Part shown: in pieces, positions 41,649 to 52,515 of the stretch
How positions within the stretch are numbered: position 1 is the first letter of the stretch
How the letters are laid out: each line of letters starts with the position of its first letter
Assembly (NCBI GenBank): GCA_018673915.1
Contig: JABHBK010000001.1
Location: 68,069 to 132,068, forward strand
DNA length: 64,000 nucleotides
Source of the DNA: Nitrospina sp.
GTDB lineage: Bacteria > Nitrospinota > Nitrospinia > Nitrospinales > VA-1
Direction: 5' to 3'
Program-made: the position numbers and the translations under genes
Notes under the pieces: model-generated
Told to the model about the DNA's origin: nothing
Databases searched by the model: none
What the model saw: the letters and a program-made list of their open reading frames with translations, nothing else

Positions 41649-42638
41649 TTAGGGAGCAACCCTCCAAATCGAGTTTACAAAATATTTCTGCGAATCAAAT
41701 AAATGTTCCTCGATTTGAAACCCGCTTTCAGTGGCGAGGCTTTCTATTTCCTCAAGAGTAAATTTAAAAGATTGTTCCGTCTGCATCGTTTCCCAAGCTT
41801 TAAAATGATAGTCTTCGTCTAAGGACTTAATATGTACAGTTTGGTTGCATGTGCTGTATAGATAACTTTCAACTGCGCGGGTATTTGGGTTGTATTGGCC
41901 TTGTTGCACAAAGTTATTTTTATTAAAGTTTGCTCCGAGCATCTGATTAATGCGATCCAGAAGATGCAGATTGAATTTTTCAAATAGCTGGTTATTGTAG
42001 GCAGAATAAAGCAGTTTAGGGTTTTTCATGAGGTCAAATCCAATCAATAAGTAATCCTTTGGTCCCAGCGTCTCGCATAAATTTTTGAGAAATGATCGGG
42101 CTGTATCCCGGTCCATATTGTTCAGGGTTACTCCTAAAAAGAGGACCAGGTTTTGCTTTGAACCTTCTTGTGTAATGGTGTTGAGACCATCAAAATAATC
42201 TCCGATCAAACCTGTAACTTGAAGGTGGGTGTCTTGCTGTTCAGCTTCCAGGGATCGAACCAGGTTTGTGACCGCTCCGCTGGAAATATCTATGGGGAAA
42301 TAATGAAAACCGAAATTTTCATTGAGTAAATGTTCGATGAGAATCCTGGTCTTACAACCATCCCCTGAACCCAACTCGATAAGGTTGAATTTGTCACCGG
42401 AAATAAGTTTTGCAATTTTGTTTTTATGGTTACGAATGATTTCAAATTCACATGCTGCGGGAAGATACTCTGCGAGCTCTGTTATCGCCTTGAAAATCAC
42501 ACTTCCAGCGCTATCAAAAATTAGCCAGGAGGGTAAACACTTGTTATCAAGTGAGAGGCCCTTATGAACTGCGCTTGCAAATTGATCCTCCTGAGAAATT
42601 GATGCGGACCCGGCTTTCAGGGTTTTTGTTTCAAACAA
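41649..42638 (-). CDS. EgtD-family (Methyltransf_33) SAM-dependent amino-acid N-methyltransferase
   Basis: TTG start after GAAAGGAG. LPSWLIFDSAGSVIF..ITELAEY, LIELGSGDGCKTRILIEHL, YFPIDIS, LFLGVTLNN, and TEQSFKF colinear with M. smegmatis EgtD as I recall it. Confidence 0.75.
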   Translation of the reverse strand: MFETKTLKAGSASISQEDQFASAVHKGLSLDNKCLPSWLIFDSAGSVIFKAITELAEYLPAACEFEIIRNHKNKIAKLISGDKFNLIELGSGDGCKTRILIEHLLNENFGFHYFPIDISSGAVTNLVRSLEAEQQDTHLQVTGLIGDYFDGLNTITQEGSKQNLVLFLGVTLNNMDRDTARSFLKNLCETLGPKDYLLIGFDLMKNPKLLYSAYNNQLFEKFNLHLLDRINQMLGANFNKNNFVQQGQYNPNTRAVESYLYSTCNQTVHIKSLDEDYHFKAWETMQTEQSFKFTLEEIESLATESGFQIEEHLFDSQKYFVNSIWRVAP

Positions 42639-42842: not shown

Positions 42843-43904
42843 ATGCATTTTAATTCACAAACAGATTCTACAGCCCTAGATTATACCTACCAGGAATTGG
42901 AGGATGAGTTCGTAGGTTTGATGAATTTGAATAATCTGGATAGAGTCATTGCGGGAAACCCTGATCGGGTTGAAAGTTTTGAGTTGGAACTTGAAGTTTC
43001 TTTGTCTGCCGCATTTGAAAGTGGTGCGGGTTGCCCTCAAGCACGCTTGCTTTTGCAGAGAATTCTATATCGCATAAACCGTTTGAAACTTTTTTGGTAT
43101 GACGGATTAGACAATTATGCCAATGAAGATTCCAGTTTCCTGTTTTCATTACGAATGAAAATTGAGAATGCCTGGCAGGATTGGGAGGATGGTAATAACA
43201 TCATGCGCAATTCCGATGATCTCCGCGGGGCTCTTCGTGATCGTGTGCAGGATGACCTGCAACCCGAGCCGTCGCCGGATGGTTTGGTCATTCGTAATGA
43301 GATTTCAAAAGCCGGGTACCAGCAATTGCTCGCTATAACTTCCCTGGACGGTCTGGTGGAAGCGAGTCAGCTTTCCCGTATGCTTGGAGGTGTCGGAAAC
43401 GAAGTGCAGACGATGCTGACGCGGATTTTATGGGAAGAATATGGTAGTGGAAAATTTTCGCGAAAGCATTCCACACATTTCGCACTCATGCTGGAAGAAT
43501 GTGATTTAGATTCAAGGCCGGAAGTTTATTTTGATCTTGCGCCGTGGGAGGTGCTGGCAAATATTAACCATAGTTTTTTTCTTTCCGAGCGTAAGAAAAA
43601 CTTTTTACGTTATATCGGTGGTTTGCTCTACACGGAAGTTTCTGTTCCTGCTGCGTTTCAAAATATCAAAATGGCTGGTGAGCGTTTGGAAATGGGTGGA
43701 AAGGGGGTCAGCTATTGGGATCTTCATATCCAAGAGGATATCCGCCATGGGCAATGGATGCTGGATGATGTTGCCTTTCCCCTGATTGAAAAATATCCTG
43801 ATCAAGCCTGGGACATGGTAAAGGGGTATGACCAGCAAAAGTTTATCAGCTCCCGTGCGACCTCAGCCATTGTAGAGTCCATTCGACAACTGGAATTCTC
43901 CTGA
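42843..43904 (+). CDS. haem-oxygenase-like di-iron (iron-containing redox enzyme) family protein
   Basis: LWEEYGSGKFSRKHSTHF (E..E/H helix) and YWDLHIQEDIRHGQW (H-x2-ED-x2-H) are typical metal-ligand helices of the family. No Shine-Dalgarno sequence, so the start is uncertain. Confidence 0.6.
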   Translation: MHFNSQTDSTALDYTYQELEDEFVGLMNLNNLDRVIAGNPDRVESFELELEVSLSAAFESGAGCPQARLLLQRILYRINRLKLFWYDGLDNYANEDSSFLFSLRMKIENAWQDWEDGNNIMRNSDDLRGALRDRVQDDLQPEPSPDGLVIRNEISKAGYQQLLAITSLDGLVEASQLSRMLGGVGNEVQTMLTRILWEEYGSGKFSRKHSTHFALMLEECDLDSRPEVYFDLAPWEVLANINHSFFLSERKKNFLRYIGGLLYTEVSVPAAFQNIKMAGERLEMGGKGVSYWDLHIQEDIRHGQWMLDDVAFPLIEKYPDQAWDMVKGYDQQKFISSRATSAIVESIRQLEFS

Positions 43905-43920
43905 GAACTACCAATATTAA

Positions 43921-44352
43921 TCAGGAAGAAATATCCAAAGTCTTTTTTGTGTCAATGGTCAACAATAAGGCGTCCTTGAGTTTATAGACTCCATGAATCA
44001 ATTGGCGTGCTACGTCATCCAATGTTTCGGGAGGAGGCTCAAGGGCTTCATCCCCCACCTCGAGAACATCTCCGATGCGGTCAACCAGGAGGCTCACTAC
44101 ATCATCATCGGTCCTGATAACTACATTCATGGGTTTCTTGTCACCTGGAAGGTCTTTCATTCCTAGCCGACGTCTCAAATCAATGGCTGTAATGATTTGT
44201 CCTCTGAGATTGATCAATCCTCGAACCACTGAGGGAGCAAGTGGAACCTGCGTCATTTCCTGGTAGCGAAAAACTTCCTGCACCCGTTCCACTTCGACAC
44301 CAAAAAAACGATCCTCAAGGTAAAATGTGCAAAACTGTTTTTGATCATTCAT
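43921..44352 (-). CDS. cheW: chemotaxis coupling protein CheW
   Basis: 143 aa. FCTFYLEDRFFGVEVERVQEV...PLAPSVVRGLINLRGQIITAIDL. Confidence 0.92.
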   Translation of the reverse strand: MNDQKQFCTFYLEDRFFGVEVERVQEVFRYQEMTQVPLAPSVVRGLINLRGQIITAIDLRRRLGMKDLPGDKKPMNVVIRTDDDVVSLLVDRIGDVLEVGDEALEPPPETLDDVARQLIHGVYKLKDALLLTIDTKKTLDISS

Positions 44353-44476
44353 GGCTTACTTCCTCAAGTTTTTTTCAATCATGGAGCTGCATATTCTTTA
44401 TCTAAAGGAACGGAGTACAGCCAGCAATTGATTTCATATCGATCCTTTCATCAAGAATTAGAAACAGGAATGACCA

Positions 44477-47113
44477 TTAATGGGTTAAACTCAAAACCTC
44501 TTGGTGGTCATCAAAAAATGCTGGGTCCATTTCACGAACAATGCCCTCCATGTCAATCAAGTCCGTGACCAAATCTTGAACCACTACCGTTCCCAGGATT
44601 CCTTTCCGTGTAAGAGATCTTTTTACAGTTATATTTTCTTCGACAATATCAAGAATTTGATCGACCACCAGGGCTACACTTTTATTTTGGTGCGTGTATA
44701 TGATCGTTTGAATCGTTGCATTCTTTTTGACCTGTTGGCTGGAATCGAAAAAATTTAAAAGATCAATAAGAGGTATGATTTCTCCTCGGTATTGAATGAC
44801 GTCATTGTTTCCTGAGCGTTCAATGTCCGAACATTTGAATTCCTCCAGGCGTGCGACAGTAGAAAGCGGGATGGAGTTTCGTCCTTTTTCTCCAACTCTA
44901 AAGATCAATAAGGTTTCCTTGTCAGTAACCTCATTGTCTGCCAGGCTTTTATCTTTCGAATCTGCCATGGCTTGCTCCTGGTTTTCACGGACTACCTGTG
45001 CCTTTTGAGCCAGACCCATTATGTCAAGGATCAGTGCCACGCTTCCGTCTCCCATAATGGTTGCTCCAGAAAAACCTGCGATTCCCTTCAATTGGTTTCC
45101 CAAGGGTTTCACTACAATTTCCTCCGCATCACAGATCTGCTCAACGACGAGGCCAAACTGTCTTTCATTGGCGTTTAAAACAACAATATTGGTCGCTGTT
45201 TGAGCACTTTCATTTTTTGAAATTCCCAGTTCAGAATTCAAATTTATGATGGGCAAAAGGTTACCTCGAAGACGATATACCGGGGTCCCTTGAATCGTTT
45301 CGATCGCTTTTTCAGACTGCTCCTCATTCAAACGGACCAGCTCCAGCAGATTCACTTGAGGTATTGCATACTGGTTGCCTCCTGTTGAAACGATCAAAGC
45401 TGGAATAATTGCCAGGGTTAAAGGAATTCTTACTTTCAGGGTGGTGCCTTCCCCTTGACAGGTATGAATATCAACCGTTCCACCAATTTTATCAATATTG
45501 GTTTTAACCACATCCATCCCGACACCACGACCGGATACATTTGTAACTGCTTTCGCTGTAGAAAGCCCAGGCATGAAAATAAGGTTCACCAATTCGCGCT
45601 CGCCCATTTTTGCAGCCTGCTCGCTGGTGATCAAACCTTTGCTCAAGGCTTTTTCTTTGAGGATAGAGGGGTCAATTCCACCGCCATCATCTGTGATTTC
45701 AATAATGACCTGTCCTCCCTCATGGTAGGATTTCAGCTGTAAAACGCCTTCCTCAGGTTTACCTAGGTCGCGTCTTACATCGGGGATTTCTATCCCATGG
45801 TCTACTGAGTTACGTATAATATGTGTTAGCGGATCCTTAATCGCCTCGATCAAGGTTTTGTCCAGCTCCGTTTCTTTTCCTTCCGTTTCAAGGCGAATTT
45901 TCTTGCCGCATTCCATGGACAAATCACGAACTATTCTGGGGAACTTGCTCCAAATTCCGCCTATAGGCTGCATCCGCGTTTTCATCACTCCTTCCTGAAG
46001 ATCAGAAGTCACCAAATTTAAATGCTGGGAAGTTTCCATGAAGCTGGCATCATGGTGAGAGGAACTAAACTGCAGAACCTGATTTCTAGCTAAGACCAGT
46101 TCTCCAACCAGGTTCATCAGCTTATCAAGCAACTGGACATCAACGCGAATACTGGAATCCTCCAGCTTGCGCTCTTCCTTTTTTGCCGTACCTGAGCCAG
46201 AAGATTTTTTAACTTTTCCATTGGATGGGGTTACTTCAGGTTTTCCGTTCCCGGGCGTAAGACCTGACACTTCAGGAGCCTCTTTAGTTAGGGCTATTTC
46301 TTTTTTGGAGGGTTCTGATTTTGTTCGATTCAGAACATCATTTTTAACAGAAAGCGCTATGCGGGCCGCCTCCCCAATTAAATCACCGGGAACTTTCAAT
46401 TCCATCAAGGTCGTTCCAAAGTCTTCTATGACCGCATCAAAATGGCTTTCGTTCAGGCCTTTCTCTTCTACAAGATATTTGTGCGTTTCCCTGAGTCCTC
46501 TTCCGTCATAATTACTGGGGCCGCCAAACGCGAAAGCCAAAAACTCTTTTTGCTTATTCAGAAGGTGGTTCAAGTCTGCGCCTTCAAAAAAATGACTGAT
46601 ACGGTCGTCATTTAGAACTTTTGCGTAAAACAGGTTGACCGTTGCATCGACCGCTTCTTGTCCACCCATTCTCTCAAAAAGGGATGCAGGCTTTGCACCA
46701 TTCCCATTTCCTGAGGCTGGTTTTCCAGTCGCATCTGCCCGCAGGCGTTCCATGGACTCAATTAATCCAGAAAAATTATGATCTCCTTCATTTCCCTGTT
46801 TAGTTACAGATGTGAATATTCTGCGTATTGAATCTGACAGTTCATGCAGGATATTCATGATTTCTGGAGTTGGTGCTACCTTGCCCTGCTGAAGCGCATC
46901 TAGAAAGTTTTCACCAGAGTGGGTTAGAGATTCGAGCTTGGTGTAACCAATTAATCCGCAGCTACCCTTGATGTTATGGATAGTTCGAAAAATACCTTCT
47001 AATAATTCCGGGGAATGGGGAGTTTCTTCCAGGCTAATCAGGTCCTGATCAAACCGATCCAGGTTCTCACGACTCTCGGCCACAAACTCCAAGATCATTT
47101 CATTGGCTTGCAT
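44477..47113 (-). CDS. cheA: CheA-type histidine kinase with embedded truncated-globin domain and two CheW-like domains
   Basis: ATG at 47113 follows AGGAAGGA. Hpt domain (FRTIHNIKGS), globin-like insert, dimerisation helix, HATPase (NSVDHGIE, DDGGGI, GRGVGMDVV), then two CheW-like modules. Confidence 0.92.
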   Translation of the reverse strand: MQANEMILEFVAESRENLDRFDQDLISLEETPHSPELLEGIFRTIHNIKGSCGLIGYTKLESLTHSGENFLDALQQGKVAPTPEIMNILHELSDSIRRIFTSVTKQGNEGDHNFSGLIESMERLRADATGKPASGNGNGAKPASLFERMGGQEAVDATVNLFYAKVLNDDRISHFFEGADLNHLLNKQKEFLAFAFGGPSNYDGRGLRETHKYLVEEKGLNESHFDAVIEDFGTTLMELKVPGDLIGEAARIALSVKNDVLNRTKSEPSKKEIALTKEAPEVSGLTPGNGKPEVTPSNGKVKKSSGSGTAKKEERKLEDSSIRVDVQLLDKLMNLVGELVLARNQVLQFSSSHHDASFMETSQHLNLVTSDLQEGVMKTRMQPIGGIWSKFPRIVRDLSMECGKKIRLETEGKETELDKTLIEAIKDPLTHIIRNSVDHGIEIPDVRRDLGKPEEGVLQLKSYHEGGQVIIEITDDGGGIDPSILKEKALSKGLITSEQAAKMGERELVNLIFMPGLSTAKAVTNVSGRGVGMDVVKTNIDKIGGTVDIHTCQGEGTTLKVRIPLTLAIIPALIVSTGGNQYAIPQVNLLELVRLNEEQSEKAIETIQGTPVYRLRGNLLPIINLNSELGISKNESAQTATNIVVLNANERQFGLVVEQICDAEEIVVKPLGNQLKGIAGFSGATIMGDGSVALILDIMGLAQKAQVVRENQEQAMADSKDKSLADNEVTDKETLLIFRVGEKGRNSIPLSTVARLEEFKCSDIERSGNNDVIQYRGEIIPLIDLLNFFDSSQQVKKNATIQTIIYTHQNKSVALVVDQILDIVEENITVKRSLTRKGILGTVVVQDLVTDLIDMEGIVREMDPAFFDDHQEVLSLTH
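46328..46687 (-). other. group-I truncated haemoglobin (Bac_globin-like) domain inside CheA
   Basis: SLFERMGGQEAVDATVNLFYAKVLNDDRISHFFEGADLNHLLNKQKEFLAFAFGGPSNYDGRGLRETHKYL...HFDAV, colinear with M. tuberculosis HbN as I recall it. Confidence 0.75.
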
Positions 47114-47189
47114 GATTGATTCCTTCCTTATTTCTTTAGTATTCACGGGCCTTACCTCCAGATAAAGTTCCCGAAACTGTTGGGAGTTT

Positions 47190-47227
47190 ATTGAAGGGCT
47201 TCGGGTTTTTAACCGAAGCCCTTCAAT
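47190..47227 (-). other. perfect 15-bp intercistronic hairpin between mcp and cheA
   Basis: ATTGAAGGGCTTCGG, an 8-nt loop, then CCGAAGCCCTTCAAT. No U-run on either strand. Confidence 0.8.
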
Positions 47228-47242
47228 GCAAATACCGACTGT

Positions 47243-49264
47243 TTAGCCATTAAACTCGCTGACAATATTTTGCATTTCTGCCGCCAGTTTAGACAATTCA
47301 CTCGCTGCTGTTTGAGTATCCGTAGCACCTTCGGTGGTGCTATGAGCCGCCTGAGCCACACCGGCAATATTCTCGGCAATCTCTTGAGATCCGCGGGAGG
47401 CATCGGTGACATTACGGGTGATCTCGTTGGTGGTGGCCGACTGCTCCTCCACCGCACTGGCAATGGTGTTGGAGATATCGCTGATCTGGCCAATAACCCC
47501 GCTGATCTCACCAATAGCAGTTACAGCACTCTGAGTATCCGTTTGTATGGCGGAGATTTTACTGCTGATTTCCTCGGTAGCCTTGGCAGTCTGATTAGCC
47601 AGTTCCTTGACCTCGTTGGCGACTACGGCGAATCCTTTACCTGCTTCACCAGCACGTGCTGCTTCAATGGTGGCATTCAAGGCCAATAGATTGGTCTGTT
47701 CCGCAATCGAGGTGATGACTTTGATGACTTGGCCAATCTCAGCCGAACTGACTCCCAACTGGGTCACTGTCTTGTTGGTGGTCTCGGCCAACTGAACCGC
47801 ATCGCTGGTGACTTTGGTAGCCTGGTTGGCGTTATGAGCAATCTCTTTTATGCTTGCGCTCATTTCTTCCGAACCGGTAGCTACCGTTTGAATGTTCTGG
47901 TTCACCTGATCGGAGGCGGCAGAGACGACATTGGACTGAGCCGAAGTCTCTTCCGCATTTCCGGCCATTTGCTGGCTGGTGGCGGTCAACTCCTCTGAGG
48001 CTCCGGCAAGGGTCTGGGCTTTTTCCGCAACATTGTTAAGAACCTTCTGCATGTTTTCGTTCTGTTCTTTTTCGCGTTTTTCAGCCGCCAGTTTTTCGGT
48101 AATCACTTCCCAGGTAACCATGGGCCCGAGGTAATTTTTATCCTTATCATAGATAGCACTGACCAGAAGATCGAGGACCTCAGGACCCACTTGTATTTCT
48201 GCACGATGTGGCAGGTTATTGGGATCAGATAGAATTTTGCGCTGATGTGCAGGGTTCTTGTGGAAAACATCTATGGATGAACCCATTAATTGGTCCACTC
48301 GAATAGGAAGATGTTGTTCAATGGTTTTTAATGTTGTAACGGATGCTGGGTTGACGTAGGTGATTTGAAAGGTTTCTGCATCAGCAAAAAGCACGTTCAC
48401 TGGGGCATTTTCCATCATGGAGTTAACTCGGGCGACTTCATTCTCGGTCTTTAACTTTTGAGTTATAACGTCCCAAGTGACCATCGGTCCCAGGTAGTTC
48501 TTGTTTTCATCATAAATAGCGCTGACCAGAAGATCGAGGATCTCAGGCCCAACTTGTATTTCTGTACGATGCGGCAGGTTATTGGGATCAGAAAGAAGTT
48601 TTCTTTGGTGCGCGGGGTTCTTGTGAAAAACATCTATGCATTGTCCCATCAATTTATCCACAGGAATGGGTAAATATTGTTCAATGGTTTTTAACGTCTT
48701 TATGGAAGCAGGGTTGACATAGGTGATTTCAAAACTATCTTTATCGGCATATATGACGTTAACCGGGGCGTTCTCCATCATTGAGTTGACCCTATCCATA
48801 GCCCGTTTCGTGATATTGATTTTGGTGACATCTTCCCAGTTGACGACATAACCGGAAATCATACCATTGGAATCGTTGATTGAGTTTATGGTAGCGGCAA
48901 GCGTCACCCCACCAAAACCAAACTCAGCCGTGTGCGGCAAAGCAGAAGGATTGCGTAAAATTCTTTCAATCTTTTGCGGGTCTTTATGAAACCGGTGGAT
49001 GGAACCACCGACGATATCGTTCAGGTTAACCCCAAATGCTTCATTAATCTGGTCCTTGATGGTTTCCAAGGTGTTCACAGCACTTTGATTGGCGTAAACG
49101 AGAGTGAAATTTGTATCCGCCACCAGCACATTTGCTTGAACATTGTCCAGGCAGGAAAGCAGACCTCCCGAAGATTTCATTAAACCATTACTGCCATTTC
49201 CTCCACCAAACAGGCCGAGAAATCCAGATTTACTTGCAGATGATTGGGTGGCGAGCATATTCAT
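47243..49264 (-). CDS. soluble methyl-accepting chemotaxis protein with three N-terminal PAS domains
   Basis: No TM helix. Three PAS modules each carry FHK(N/D)P...W(D/E)(D/V). The C-terminal MCP signalling domain has ([29 protein letters not shown]). GGAGGA Shine-Dalgarno sequence. Confidence 0.92.
48092..48793 (-). repeat. tandem 363-bp duplication encoding PAS2 and PAS3 of the MCP
   Basis: GACCAGAAGATCGAGGA occurs at 48161 and 48524, an offset of 363. The protein copies differ at 20 of 113 aligned residues by my count. Confidence 0.9.
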
Positions 49265-49408
49265 TTTTTTTCCTCCAAAATATTTTGTGTAGTTAGGAAC
49301 TTATTTCGGGTAAAAGCTTATTCCCAATAATGGGTCCTAATTTAAGACAGGTAGTTAGTTTCCTTGATTAAACTCTAAATGCTTTTCACTTTAACTAAAC
49401 ATAAGTAA

Positions 49409-49424
49409 AGCAAAAGGTATGCCA
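49409..49424 (-). promoter_or_regulatory. sigma-54 promoter of the mcp-cheA-cheW operon
   Basis: The minus strand reads TGGCAT-acctt-TTGCT, about 145 nt upstream of the mcp ATG. Confidence 0.7.
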
Positions 49425-49733
49425 AAAACCTGATAATCTTATAAGGGCTTATTTAACAGTGTAGAGATAAAAATGCTGATGTTTTTTTGTTGTGATTTGT
49501 TCCAATTTTTTTATATTCACCAGTGAAGTGTGTTTAAATGTTTTTATAGGGAGAGGGCGCTTCAAAAATGAGGAGGCCCATTTTGATAGGGAGCAATGTG
49601 CCTTGAGAGTTACTAATGAGGTTAAAAAGTTTGTAGGAAAGGAAGCAAAAAGAGGAAAGCCCGCTTTGAGGGGCAATCCTTTTTCCATGAAAATTCTGGT
49701 TTTGGAGCGGATTTCCAAAAACCCATAGCCCGT

Positions 49734-51107
49734 TTAAATAAAATATTTACGTTTCAGGCCTAGAGCCTTGAGGCGATTGTAAAGAGTTTGCCGGGAAAGG
49801 CCCAAATTGGTATAAGTTTTTTTGATATCCCCTTTATTGCGAGTCAGTTCTTGAGAGATCAGACTTTTTTCTATAGCGGCTAATTGGTTATTCAATCCGG
49901 TAGGAGGATTCTTAAGTGTTTGTTGAATAGAAACCTGAATATCATTTTCTGCGCTTGGGGTGCTGGTATCGGGAAGGCCCAGGACGAATTTGTCGGCTTC
50001 ATTTTTAAGTTCACGAACGTTTCCCTCCCACTTGCGAGACTGGAGAGCAATAATAAGCTCTGGAGAAGGGACCGGCGGTGTTTTCTGATTGTAGCGTGAA
50101 CAGGCATCCAATATTAGATGATGAAACAATAATGGGATATCTTCAACCCGCTCGCGCAGAGGGGGGAGAGCGATTTGAACCACATTGAGGCGATAATACA
50201 AATCTTCCCGGAACAGGTTTTGTTCACTGGCTAATTTTAGATCTGTTTTTGTTGCGGCAATAATACGGATATCCAGAGGTATGAGTTCGTTGGAACCGAC
50301 TCGCTCAATCGCTTTTTCTTGAATCACACGGAGAAGCTTTACCTGAAGGTGCAGGGGCATACTTTCAATTTCATCCAGGAAAACGGTTCCTTTGTTGGAG
50401 TGCTCAAATTTTCCGATCCTTTTACGGTCTGCGCCGGTAAAGGCCCCTGCTTCATGACCGAACAACTCACTCTCAATAATATTTTCAGGCATAGCCCCGC
50501 AATTGATAGCTGTAAATTTATGATTGCTTCTTTTGCTGGACTGATGAATATTTTGAGCGATGAGGTCTTTTCCCGTTCCCGTTTCTCCAAAAATAAGTAT
50601 GTCGGCATCGGCATCGGCGATATTTGAAATAACCTGACGAAGACGTTCGATGGAAGGGGACTTCCCTACAATCATATTCTTAGTGTCGTTTTGGTGGTTG
50701 ATTTTGGATCGGAGGTTCCTCACTTCCATAACAAGGCGGCGCTTTTCCTTTGCCCGTTTAATGGCATCTATGAAGGTTTCGGTAGCAAAAGGTTTTTCTA
50801 AAAATTCATAAGCTCCGTTTTGGATCGCCTGGACTGCCATGGAGATATTCCCCTGGCCTGTAATGAGGATGACGGGGATTTCCGGGTCTACTTCTTTGAC
50901 TTTTTCCATCAAGGTCAGGCCATTCATTTTTGGCATTATTACATCGCTCACCAATACGCCTGGCCAATCTGGTGAAATGGAAGCCAGAGCATCTTGTGCG
51001 GAATCAAAATCTTCCACTTCAAAGTTTTTATTTTGAAGTTCTCTTTTGAGGGATAAGCGGACCACTTTTTCGTCATCAACTAAAAAAACTTTTTCGCTGG
51101 TACTCAT
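49734..51107 (-). CDS. sigma-54-dependent response regulator (NtrC family)
   Basis: REC domain (FLVDDE, VLVSDVIMPKMNG, KP). AAA+ domain with GETGTGKD, GAFTGA and VFLDEI. C-terminal HTH. Confidence 0.93.
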   Translation of the reverse strand: MSTSEKVFLVDDEKVVRLSLKRELQNKNFEVEDFDSAQDALASISPDWPGVLVSDVIMPKMNGLTLMEKVKEVDPEIPVILITGQGNISMAVQAIQNGAYEFLEKPFATETFIDAIKRAKEKRRLVMEVRNLRSKINHQNDTKNMIVGKSPSIERLRQVISNIADADADILIFGETGTGKDLIAQNIHQSSKRSNHKFTAINCGAMPENIIESELFGHEAGAFTGADRKRIGKFEHSNKGTVFLDEIESMPLHLQVKLLRVIQEKAIERVGSNELIPLDIRIIAATKTDLKLASEQNLFREDLYYRLNVVQIALPPLRERVEDIPLLFHHLILDACSRYNQKTPPVPSPELIIALQSRKWEGNVRELKNEADKFVLGLPDTSTPSAENDIQVSIQQTLKNPPTGLNNQLAAIEKSLISQELTRNKGDIKKTYTNLGLSRQTLYNRLKALGLKRKYFI

Positions 51108-51148
51108 ATTTATTATTCCCAAAAATATTGTTCTTAATAATTAGACCT

Positions 51149-52393
51149 TTAAATTGATTCTTCTCCATTTGAATTAATGGGAAGGGTGATTATGGATTGA
51201 GTCCCTCGTCCCTCGGTGCTTCGGACTTTTAAATCTCCGCCATGTTTTTTAATGATTCCGTAACTGACAGAAAGCCCCAGGCCTGTGCCTTTAACCTCTC
51301 CCTTAGTCGTAAAGAAAGGGTCAAAAATTTTTTCCATGTGTTGCTGTTTTATGCCCTGCCCGATATCCTCAATTTCTACTTCAACGTTTGAATTGAGAAC
51401 TTTGGTGCGAATAGTTATTGCTCCACCCTTTTTGCAGGCCTCATTTGAGTTTTGCAGGAGGTTTAAAATGACCTGTTTGAACTGGTCTTCCACCACTCTG
51501 ACATCGGGTAAACACTCAACGTACTCCTTGGTCAACTGTATATTCTCTTTGTTGAAATCATTCTTCTTGAGCATGAGCATGTCATCAATAGCATTATGAA
51601 GGTTCAAGGGTTGAGGTGTTCCCGAAGTAGGGCGGTAAAAGTCTTTAAGCTGATGAGCGAGGTTCATGACGCGATTGCTCTCATTGATTGAAAGCTCCAC
51701 CAGTTCTTTCAGAGAGTCTTCCATGGTGGTTCCCTGCTGAACCTGTTCAAGGGTATTGCGAATTCCCATCAGAGGGTTGTTGAATTCATGAGCGATACTT
51801 GCGGCTAATTGACCGAGAGCCGAAAGTTTTTCGACGTGCAAAAGTTGCTGATTAACATTTTGCAACTCTTTTTCTGATCGTTCCCGTTCGGCTATTTCTT
51901 TTTTAAGTTGTTGGTTAGCCAGTTTTAGATCGGCGGTTCTTTCAAGCACTCTCTGCTCAACAAAATCTTTTTGAGCTCCAAGGTTTTTATTCAGCAACCG
52001 CACTTCAAGAATATTTTGAATTCTGCAAAGCACCTCCGATAGATCCAGAGGTTTAGACAAGAAATCCCGAGCGCCGAACTGCAGTGCCTTGAGGCGAACC
52101 GATGGGTCAGATTCTGCAGTTAATACCAGAATGGGCGCATAAGAGTCATCATTTTCAATTTGCTTGATTTGCTCAATGACCTGAAAGCCATCCAAATGTG
52201 GCATTCTCAAATCTAGCAAAACAAGGTCTGGTTTAAGTTCCTGGTATAGAGATGCCGCTTTTCTGGAGTCTGTTGTGCTGGTGATGCAGCTATAATTTGC
52301 CTGTTTTAATGCCGACTCCAGGACAATGATGTTTGAGCTCTCATCATCTACCATAAGGATTTTGGCTTTTAAAATTTCAGCTTTATCTATCAT
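51149..52393 (-). CDS. hybrid protein: N-terminal receiver domain plus histidine kinase
   Basis: REC domain (ILMVDDE, LVLLDLRMPHLDG, KP), a coiled coil, H-box IAHEFNNPL, and HATPase NSNEAC/DIGQGI/GTGLGLS. Confidence 0.9.
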   Translation of the reverse strand: MIDKAEILKAKILMVDDESSNIIVLESALKQANYSCITSTTDSRKAASLYQELKPDLVLLDLRMPHLDGFQVIEQIKQIENDDSYAPILVLTAESDPSVRLKALQFGARDFLSKPLDLSEVLCRIQNILEVRLLNKNLGAQKDFVEQRVLERTADLKLANQQLKKEIAERERSEKELQNVNQQLLHVEKLSALGQLAASIAHEFNNPLMGIRNTLEQVQQGTTMEDSLKELVELSINESNRVMNLAHQLKDFYRPTSGTPQPLNLHNAIDDMLMLKKNDFNKENIQLTKEYVECLPDVRVVEDQFKQVILNLLQNSNEACKKGGAITIRTKVLNSNVEVEIEDIGQGIKQQHMEKIFDPFFTTKGEVKGTGLGLSVSYGIIKKHGGDLKVRSTEGRGTQSIITLPINSNGEESI

Positions 52394-52499: not shown

Positions 52500-52515
52500 A
52501 GCAAGATAAGTGCCA
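52500..52515 (-). promoter_or_regulatory. sigma-54 promoter of the REC-HK / NtrC-type regulator operon
   Basis: The minus strand reads TGGCAC-ttatc-TTGCT (consensus -24 and -12), about 105 nt upstream of the ATG at 52393. Confidence 0.75.

Follow-up and report, generated by a model that had tools for sequence, protein, structure and literature searches.

A HAMP-less chemoreceptor with three putative Aer2-type PAS-haem domains, encoded beside a haemoglobin-bearing CheA in Nitrospina

A stretch of 64,000 nucleotides from a Nitrospina sp. contig (JABHBK010000001.1, positions 68,069 to 132,068, assembly GCA_018673915.1; all of it is called the window here) encodes a soluble methyl-accepting chemotaxis protein (MCP). 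We consider it probable, at about three chances in four, that this MCP works in the cytoplasm as a gas chemoreceptor that uses haem, of the Aer2 PAS-haem type. Its open reading frame spans 47243..49264 on the minus strand, starts with ATG and specifies 673 amino acids, with the coordinates given in an initial annotation that had been made from the sequence alone. Pfam detects MCPsignal (PF00015, E 3e-35), PAS_8, PAS_9 and PAS_4 in the protein. That annotation had described a soluble MCP with three PAS domains, and the reading frame, the Pfam matches and the presence of all six protein strings that it had quoted bear out the description. It had also seen no transmembrane segment; the maximum 19-residue Kyte-Doolittle hydropathy is only 1.22, which confirms that there is none. 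The gene and its parts are as follows.

47243..49264, minus strand: whole gene, soluble MCP with three Aer2-type PAS domains and a kinase-control hairpin (open reading frame, Pfam, NCBIfam).
49272..49276, minus strand: Shine-Dalgarno sequence GGAGG, 7 nt before the ATG (sequence).
49172..49264, minus strand: N-terminal 31 residues, Gly/Ser-rich and predicted to be disordered (predicted local distance difference test, pLDDT, of 24-28 over residues 1-30).
48815..49171, minus strand: PAS1, residues 32-150, divergent; His93 codon 48986-48988, Trp143 codon 48836-48838 (phmmer, column analysis).
48452..48799, minus strand: PAS2, residues 156-271; His214 codon 48623-48625, Trp264 codon 48473-48475; H-beta Leu kept (phmmer, identity).
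48089..48436, minus strand: PAS3, residues 277-392, joined to the output region; His335 codon 48260-48262, Trp385 codon 48110-48112; H-beta Leu kept (phmmer, identity).
47645..48088, minus strand: unbroken helix from PAS3 to the hairpin tip, residues 393-540, made up of a charged neck of about 2-3 heptads and an N-arm with methylation-type motifs, including TGSEEMSAS (AlphaFold2, residue counts).
47246..47644, minus strand: C-arm of the hairpin, residues 541-673, with the methylation-type motif SAVEEQSAT, ending ...IVSEFNG (sequence).

Each PAS unit contains the motif F-H-K-(N/D)-P followed by a Trp. A His...Trp pair in every PAS domain had been noted previously and is present, but the spacing is exactly 50 residues in all three units rather than 50-51. 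W143, W264 and W385 are the sole Trp residues of the MCP. Chance repetition of a motif was ruled out, as the motifs sit in three PAS units that are homologous. Between PAS2 and PAS3 the identity is 81% for protein and 76% for DNA, which makes them a recent tandem duplicate; PAS1 shares 30-35% with each.

We searched each unit singly by phmmer against all PDB sequences, and the matches were essentially limited to three entries, 4hi4 and 3vol from Aer2 of Pseudomonas aeruginosa (PaAer2/McpB) and 6ceq from PAS2 of Aer2 of Vibrio cholerae (VcAer2), all with full-length alignments. For PAS1 the E-values were 2.5e-11 (4hi4), 1.9e-10 (3vol) and 7.6e-8 (6ceq). PAS2 matched 6ceq at 4e-15 and 3vol at 3.5e-13, the three entries spanning about 4e-15 to 5e-13, and PAS3 matched 6ceq at 1.9e-15 and 3vol at 5.8e-14, with a span of about 2e-15 to 9e-14. 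The 4hi4 chain was numbered by hand from the printed alignment, the Met at chain position 4 being residue 172. This numbering makes H234 the His in FHKNP, W283 the Trp in VQWTDRT and L264 the Leu in FSLDVV, in agreement with the ligand residues H234 and W283, 49 residues apart, that the initial annotation had given for PaAer2. In a profile alignment H93, H214 and H335 fall on H234 of PaAer2, and W143, W264 and W385 fall on W283. A possible displacement of the His or Trp from the Aer2 ligand positions had been proposed as a check on the haem assignment; both residues are in register in all three units.

The other positions vary among the units. The column of PaAer2 L264 holds Leu in PAS2 and PAS3 and Ala in PAS1. 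The DxT motif that follows the I-beta strand is canonical in PAS1 (W-E-D-V-T), and reads W-D-V-I-T in PAS2 and W-E-V-I-T in PAS3. The 6ceq chain carries Leu at the Trp column; this crystal is reported to be of a W276L mutant. PAS2 and PAS3 are 38-40% identical to the PAS domain of PaAer2 and to PAS2 of VcAer2, two references that are 34% identical to each other. VcAer2 PAS2 is the best match for PAS2 and PAS3 in both sequence and structure (39-40% identity, with 38-39% for PaAer2).

Structure prediction leads to the same domains. AlphaFold2 models were made for residues 28-420 (mean pLDDT 79.5) and for the full length (pLDDT 78.7), and were compared with the PDB by Foldseek. The model of residues 28-420 has three canonical PAS folds linked by 18-residue helices, and its best single-domain PDB matches are the three Aer2 entries.

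6ceq_A: TM-score (target) 0.83, root-mean-square deviation (rmsd) 1.5 Å, identity 38% (Foldseek).
4hi4_A: TM-score (target) 0.83, rmsd 1.8 Å, identity 36% (Foldseek).
3vol: TM-score (target) 0.78, rmsd 2.8 Å, identity 33% (Foldseek).

The higher-ranked matches (DosP, PpsR, NifL and others) are multi-PAS proteins with an rmsd above 9 Å, so that their ranks reflect the tandem arrangement only. Short helices are predicted at residues 89-92, 210-213 and 331-334, each ending directly before a ligand His. A short E-eta helix is listed by the Watts laboratory as a hallmark of Aer2 PAS domains (PMC10107281).

The ligand residues are strongly conserved. More than 7000 relatives came up in a protein search, and the nearest of them are from metagenome-assembled genomes (MAGs) of Nitrospina and Nitrospinaceae. 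With a hidden Markov model built from the three window units, 396 PAS units were delimited in the best 120 relatives plus the query. The ligand His is kept in 395 of the 396 units and the Trp in 394. At the junction, Thr or Ser occurs in 395/396 (Thr alone in 373/396), and the Asp of DxT is found in only 71/396. In 31 orthologues, with identities down to 53%, none of the six ligand residues (a His and a Trp for each of the three domains) varies. When PAS3 was searched exhaustively against 1.84 billion cluster representatives, 3562 proteins matched at E<=1e-3 and 583 at E<=1e-30, with up to seven matched units per chain.

These data bear on whether the domains hold haem at all. Were they cofactor-free, or occupied by another ligand such as FAD, the His...Trp pair would be a relic of the fold, and the assignment by Pfam of only generic families such as PAS_8 and PAS_9 is compatible with this. 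We regard it as highly improbable: the His and Trp are about 99% conserved in the 396 units, which come from several phyla, while their surroundings drift to 30% identity, and both sequence and structure put the units near three solved Aer2 PAS domains that have haem bound. All nine of the nine Aer2 PAS domains tested so far bind b-type haem through this His and bind O2 (PMC10107281).

Relatives with four, five, six or seven tandem Aer2-type PAS units per chain were also observed (P0001, P0004, P0068, P0246 and others); P0004, of 1125 amino acids, keeps the His in all seven units. Some relatives add a globin, at the N-terminus of P0001, P0056 and P0066 and at the C-terminus of P0059, giving up to about 8 predicted haem sites per polypeptide. 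The globin of P0085 and P0102 belongs to PF00042.

PAS1 is the most divergent of the three units. The H-beta column holds Leu in 315/396 units and Ala in 79/396, and the units with Ala are of the PAS1 type. PAS1-type units also carry an additional His (H90) three residues ahead of the ligand His. The Ala and the extra H90 may mean a different ligand access or coordination in PAS1. It is possible, though we think it doubtful, that only PAS3, or PAS2 and PAS3, sense gas, and that PAS1 serves in structure, dimerisation, localisation or modulation. Its 30-35% identity to the other two units and the Ala at the H-beta Leu signalling position point that way, as does the precedent of Aer2 from Vibrio vulnificus (VvAer2), in which PAS1 is easily oxidised and largely dispensable and PAS3 alone suffices for signalling. 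Yet VvAer2 PAS1 binds haem and O2 though dispensable, the PAS1 of the window MCP aligns to 4hi4 at E 2.5e-11, and its His93 and Trp143 are invariant in 31/31 orthologues. The suggestion in the initial annotation that the receptor has three gas-binding sites is supported, as far as haem binding can be predicted, by homology, ligand register and predicted fold. It does not stand as a new idea, since receptors with three PAS-haem domains have already been characterised, in VvAer2 and in Aer2 of Leptospira interrogans (LiAer2) (PMC10107281).

The GGAGG box upstream of the ATG, together with an N-terminus conserved at the protein level in about 70 homologues of 669-684 amino acids (the 31-residue leader itself recurs in P0002 and other homologues), indicates that the full-length reading of 673 amino acids is right. 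A near-identical NCBI MAG entry (P0055, Nitrospina sp., 539 amino acids) starts at Met135, which cuts PAS1 in half, and other NCBI entries of 518 amino acids (e.g. P0083) start at the equivalent of Met156 and lose PAS1. The region affected by these short gene models corresponds to window positions 48862-49264 (residues 1-134 of the MCP). Our reading corrects the public NCBI MAG annotation, in which PAS1 is truncated or dropped by the Met135 and Met156 starts.

The closest characterised counterpart is VvAer2, a tri-PAS-haem O2 sensor in which all three domains bind b-type haem and O2 (PMC10107281). Like VvAer2, the window MCP is soluble and has three tandem PAS domains with an E-eta His and an I-beta Trp, helices between the PAS units, and methylation-type sites. 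The di-HAMP that follows PAS3 in VvAer2 is absent from it, as are the C-terminal EWEEF and the F7 cluster with CheY, CheR, CheD and CheB; the hairpin of VvAer2 has 36 heptads, a class that the window MCP appears not to share. The duplicate pair also differs, being PAS1/PAS2 in VvAer2 (59%) and PAS2/PAS3 in the window MCP (81%), so that the triplication looks independent of the Vibrio one. PaAer2 shares the PAS-haem fold and has His234 and Trp283 in register with all three units (Leu264 with PAS2 and PAS3), but it has one PAS domain with three N-terminal HAMPs and a C-terminal di-HAMP, whereas the window MCP has three PAS domains and no HAMP. VcAer2, a dual PAS-haem sensor, differs in having two PAS domains and a di-HAMP. 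PaAer2, VcAer2, VvAer2 and the window MCP are all soluble, with no transmembrane segment. LiAer2, like the window MCP, has three PAS-haem domains in one receptor; unlike it, LiAer2 is membrane-embedded and has a periplasmic domain, hexacoordinate haem and a di-HAMP.

The NCBIfam search places the protein similarly. The best family by far is NF041847, 'aerotaxis transducer Aer2' (a Vibrio model, E 6.7e-101), on which residues 32-395 align to profile positions 37-413, colinear over all three PAS units, with a score of 338.8 bits that is well under the curated equivalog cutoff of 1200 bits. The window MCP is Aer2-like at the sensor level. At the receptor level it departs from Aer2 in the di-HAMP, the C-terminal pentapeptide, the cluster type and the NCBIfam cutoff.

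The 'Aer2 core' has been defined as PAS-haem, di-HAMP and kinase control (Stuffle et al. 2022; PMC10107281). The region between PAS3 and the kinase-control hairpin of the window MCP has a different construction. In the full-length AlphaFold2 model the I-beta strand of PAS3 ends at residue 387 and a single uninterrupted helix runs from 389 to 672, with a dip in pLDDT at about residue 540 that marks the hairpin turn. From the end of PAS3 (residue 392) to the tip Glu540 there are 148 residues, and from the tip to the C-terminus 133, or about 19 heptads. Only about 15 residues exceed the length of the C-arm, leaving no space for a HAMP domain of about 50 residues or for a di-HAMP. Neither HAMP nor HAMP_2 of Pfam matched the MCP at E<=0.1, the threshold used for reporting absence, while HAMP_2 was readily found in the long-linker representatives scanned, which served as a positive control. 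The Pfam result, the residue count and the continuous predicted helix together rule out a hidden divergent HAMP after PAS3, and they uphold the earlier remark that no obvious HAMP lies between PAS3 and the hairpin.

By its length of 133 residues the C-arm would fall at about 38H, and alignment with Tsr indicates one heptad fewer per arm near the tip. The tip is conserved, and methylation-type Glx-Glx motifs are found in both arms, which suggests adaptation by CheR and CheB. The C-terminal xWxxF pentapeptide is absent, as the MCP ends ...SEFNG.

Linker lengths in the relatives vary by a fixed increment. The distance from the last PAS domain to the tip is 114, 128, 135, 142 or 149 residues, in steps of 7, and relatives with an insert have a distance of 194 (142+52). 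The 52-residue insert of P0021 and P0056 had weak phmmer matches in the PDB to the HAMP domains of Tsr (E 0.009) and Aer2 (E 0.096), and no match to Pfam HAMP; it is 'HAMP-like' only. The top 150 representatives include 104 MCPs. In 59 of these the distance (<=152) is too short for a HAMP, 33 could accommodate one (187-212) and 12 two or more. Receptors of the Aer2 type that lack HAMP are thus common in sequence data, and the heptad-step linker lengths fit a register-dependent coiled-coil coupling. Soluble aerotaxis receptors without HAMP, in which the sensor is joined directly to the kinase-control hairpin, are known in HemAT and in AerC of Azospirillum. HemAT senses by a sensor globin and AerC by two FAD-binding PAS domains, and neither has a haem-PAS of the Aer2 type. 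Relative to published Aer2, what appears new is the HAMP-less multi-PAS-haem receptor of the Nitrospina type.

The genes around the MCP supply candidate partners. The neighbouring features, all on the minus strand, are as follows.

51149..52393, minus strand: REC-HisKA-HATPase hybrid kinase, first gene of a conserved three-gene module (Pfam).
49734..51122, minus strand: sigma-54-dependent response regulator (REC-AAA-HTH), directly upstream of the MCP (Pfam).
44477..47146, minus strand: CheA kinase, 889 amino acids, 96 bp downstream of the MCP (Pfam).
46388-46684, minus strand: group-1 truncated haemoglobin of CheA, complete, in the usual place of P2 between the Hpt and dimerisation domains (Pfam, phmmer to GlbN).
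43921..44352, minus strand: CheW coupling protein, 143 amino acids (Pfam CheW, E 4e-30).
49409..49424, minus strand: sigma-54 promoter-like TGGCAT-N5-TTGCT, 145 bp upstream of the MCP start (pattern scan).
52500-52515, minus strand: second sigma-54-like site, just upstream of the REC-HisKA kinase gene (pattern scan; conserved in the related loci L002 and L003).

The MCP, CheA and CheW genes lie on one strand with gaps of 96 bp and 124 bp. The pattern TGGCAY-N5-TTGCW has only 2 matches in 64 kb, compared with 0.17 expected, and both are on the minus strand.

CheA consists, in order, of an Hpt domain (residues 16-105, H-x-x-K-G), a Bac_globin domain (residues 155-253, E 3.9e-14), a low-complexity linker, the dimerisation and ATPase domains, and two CheW-like domains. 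Over its whole length the globin aligns with group-1 truncated haemoglobins from Synechocystis and Synechococcus (2hz2, 1s69, 1mwb) at E of about 1e-34. The proximal His is aligned (RETHKYL and REAHKEL), TyrB10 and GlnE11 are kept as read from the alignment, and Lys stands in place of GlbN's distal His46. Dozens of Nitrospinota CheA clusters show this fusion, with identities of 46-100% and including contigs of more than 3 Mb. In the searchable literature we found no description of a fusion of CheA to a truncated haemoglobin, which is weak negative evidence. Receptors in which PAS is joined with Bac_globin and MCPsignal have been noted in silico, e.g. Corallococcus Cc_4972 (PMC6194562), and these unite PAS and a truncated globin in one cytoplasmic MCP, like our relatives P0001, P0056 and P0059. 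In the window the globin is on CheA rather than on the MCP, and that study did not name its PAS domains as Aer2-type haem domains. We find the haemoglobin-bearing CheA partner more surprising than the receptor itself. A tentative idea, which we hold to be less probable than its opposite, is that the two proteins make up a two-tier haem sensor, in which three PAS-haem sites per MCP chain would be joined by the CheA globin and the kinase would be under dual gating, by the receptor and by a gas such as O2 or NO acting on it directly.

The pairing with CheA is variable among relatives. Collinear DNA comparison with L002, a relative that is 91% identical, gives about 84-85% identity, and the kinase-activator-MCP order is kept there with an activator-MCP gap of 50 bp. 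The window spacer between activator and MCP (49287-49733, 447 bp, bearing the promoter-like site) has no counterpart in L002. A 3.3-kb segment with CheA(globin) and CheW (43911-47198) is swapped in L002 (12067-13214) for an unrelated 278-residue reading frame, with conserved flanks, and appears from this comparison to be a strain-variable cassette. That reading frame was considered as a CheA remnant and rejected, as it encodes an unrelated, beta-barrel-like protein. The activator-MCP order is also kept in a four-PAS relative of 53% identity, and the adjacency occurs in L001, L002, L003 and on the P0123 contig. On the P0005/P0123 contig the MCP is again next to CheA(globin) and CheW, and genes for a hybrid kinase and a REC-HD-GYP protein come after them. 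A PAS-rich protein of 1323 residues beside the CheA-globin gene of L004 was examined as a possible giant MCP and rejected, being a Cache-PAS hybrid histidine kinase.

From these elements a mechanism can be proposed for an Aer2-type receptor in this setting. By analogy with the characterised domains, each PAS would hold one pentacoordinate b-type haem through His93, His214 or His335, for which O2 is the most likely ligand, with NO and CO possible. Binding of O2 to the ferrous haem of PAS3 would cause Trp385 to swing in and hydrogen-bond the ligand, displacing the H-beta Leu, as in the Aer2 model. The I-beta/'xVIT' junction would then move, and the motion would pass straight down the continuous coiled-coil helix (residues 389-540) with no di-HAMP on the way, unlike in published Aer2 receptors, where it travels through one. 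The kinase-control hairpin, of about 19 heptads per arm, would act with CheW to govern how fast the adjacent CheA autophosphorylates. The most likely role of PAS2 is to modulate PAS3, like the penultimate PAS of VcAer2 and VvAer2, and PAS1 is probably an accessory or differently tuned site. Methylation-based adaptation would be carried out by CheR and CheB encoded elsewhere, and the output could be flagellar or regulatory, e.g. through the adjacent sigma-54 activator, with its REC domain, or through the hybrid kinase.

Several points weigh against this reading. What is said here of haem occupancy, coordination state and ligand preference is prediction. PAS1 has Ala in place of the H-beta Leu and only about 30% identity to known domains, and the Asp of DxT is missing in PAS2 and PAS3. 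The experimental literature searched contains no HAMP-less Aer2-type receptor, so that signal transmission through a plain helix is an extrapolation. No CheY, CheB or CheR gene was found in the 64-kb window, and only CheA and CheW adjoin the MCP, with no CheD among its neighbours. In the 91%-identical orthologue the MCP lacks any adjacent che gene, and the CheA partnership may therefore be strain-specific.

A further question is which ligand matters physiologically. Haem could be bound and the signal could still be NO, or CO or the redox state of the haem, in place of O2. The host is a Nitrospina, and NO is a plausible cue for a nitrite oxidiser at oxic-anoxic interfaces. The partner CheA has a group-1 truncated haemoglobin with TyrB10 and GlnE11, a class often tied to NO chemistry, and VvAer2 PAS1 oxidises readily, for which its authors proposed a role in redox sensing or with another ligand. 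Against this, the I-beta Trp that stabilises O2 is kept in 394/396 units and all characterised Aer2 receptors signal on O2, and we consider a signal other than O2 unlikely.

Instead of serving taxis, the MCP and CheA could feed the REC domains of the sigma-54 activator, the hybrid kinase or HD-GYP proteins and so control gene expression or cyclic di-GMP. Relatives keep the order of REC-HisKA kinase, sigma-54 activator and MCP, which in some of them forms one operon with the 50-bp gap between activator and MCP; sigma-54-type promoters precede both units in the window, and REC-HD-GYP proteins and hybrid kinases follow CheA-globin in two relatives. The lack of CheY, CheB and CheR genes in the window, and the fact that the Aer2 systems of Pseudomonas and Vibrio do not directly drive flagella, point in the same direction. 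The linkage to the activator may, on the other hand, only mean that the activator controls transcription of the MCP. The methylation-type motifs are kept, distant relatives lie within full CheA-W-Y-B-R clusters, and genes for flagella and chemotaxis belong to the Nitrospinae core genome. With evidence on both sides, we judge a purely regulatory output to be a serious possibility that falls somewhat short of even odds.

Related arrangements extend beyond Nitrospinota. In a scan of a genome collection, in which at least 16 loci were confirmed and which gives a lower bound on the taxonomic distribution, a homologous PAS-haem MCP directly follows a CheA with two P5 domains and CheW in Planctomycetota, Opitutales, Moraxellaceae, Gemmataceae and Alphaproteobacteria. 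In two annotated loci, CheB-CheR (L013) or HemA-CheY-CheB-CheR (L006) comes after the MCP. The hemA gene of the latter, an Opitutales MAG, encodes glutamyl-tRNA reductase of the first haem-synthesis step and lies directly after the PAS-haem MCP (L006 6136-7431). Two further genes flank the che cassette in the window and are syntenic in relatives, one for a 'Haem_oxygenas_2' iron-containing redox enzyme (42843-43904, plus strand) and one for a histidine-specific S-adenosylmethionine-dependent methyltransferase (41649-42638, minus strand).

Aer2 receptors serve as the model for the conversion of gas binding by a haem-PAS domain into a conformational signal, and all published work assumes a core of PAS, di-HAMP and kinase control. 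The window MCP and its many HAMP-less relatives couple what appears to be the same sensor to a plain coiled coil with heptad-step lengths, and such a receptor would be a simpler system for studies of PAS-to-kinase coupling. The two-tier sensor, if true, would give CheA a built-in sensory cofactor domain, and would allow a nitrite oxidiser to distinguish or combine O2 and NO at the interfaces of oxygen-minimum zones. Nitrospina, the principal nitrite oxidisers of the sea, do well at very low O2. One candidate for the means by which they locate, or adapt to, oxygen-minimum-zone interfaces is a multi-haem O2/NO pathway that combines a haemoglobin-bearing CheA with sigma-54 control.

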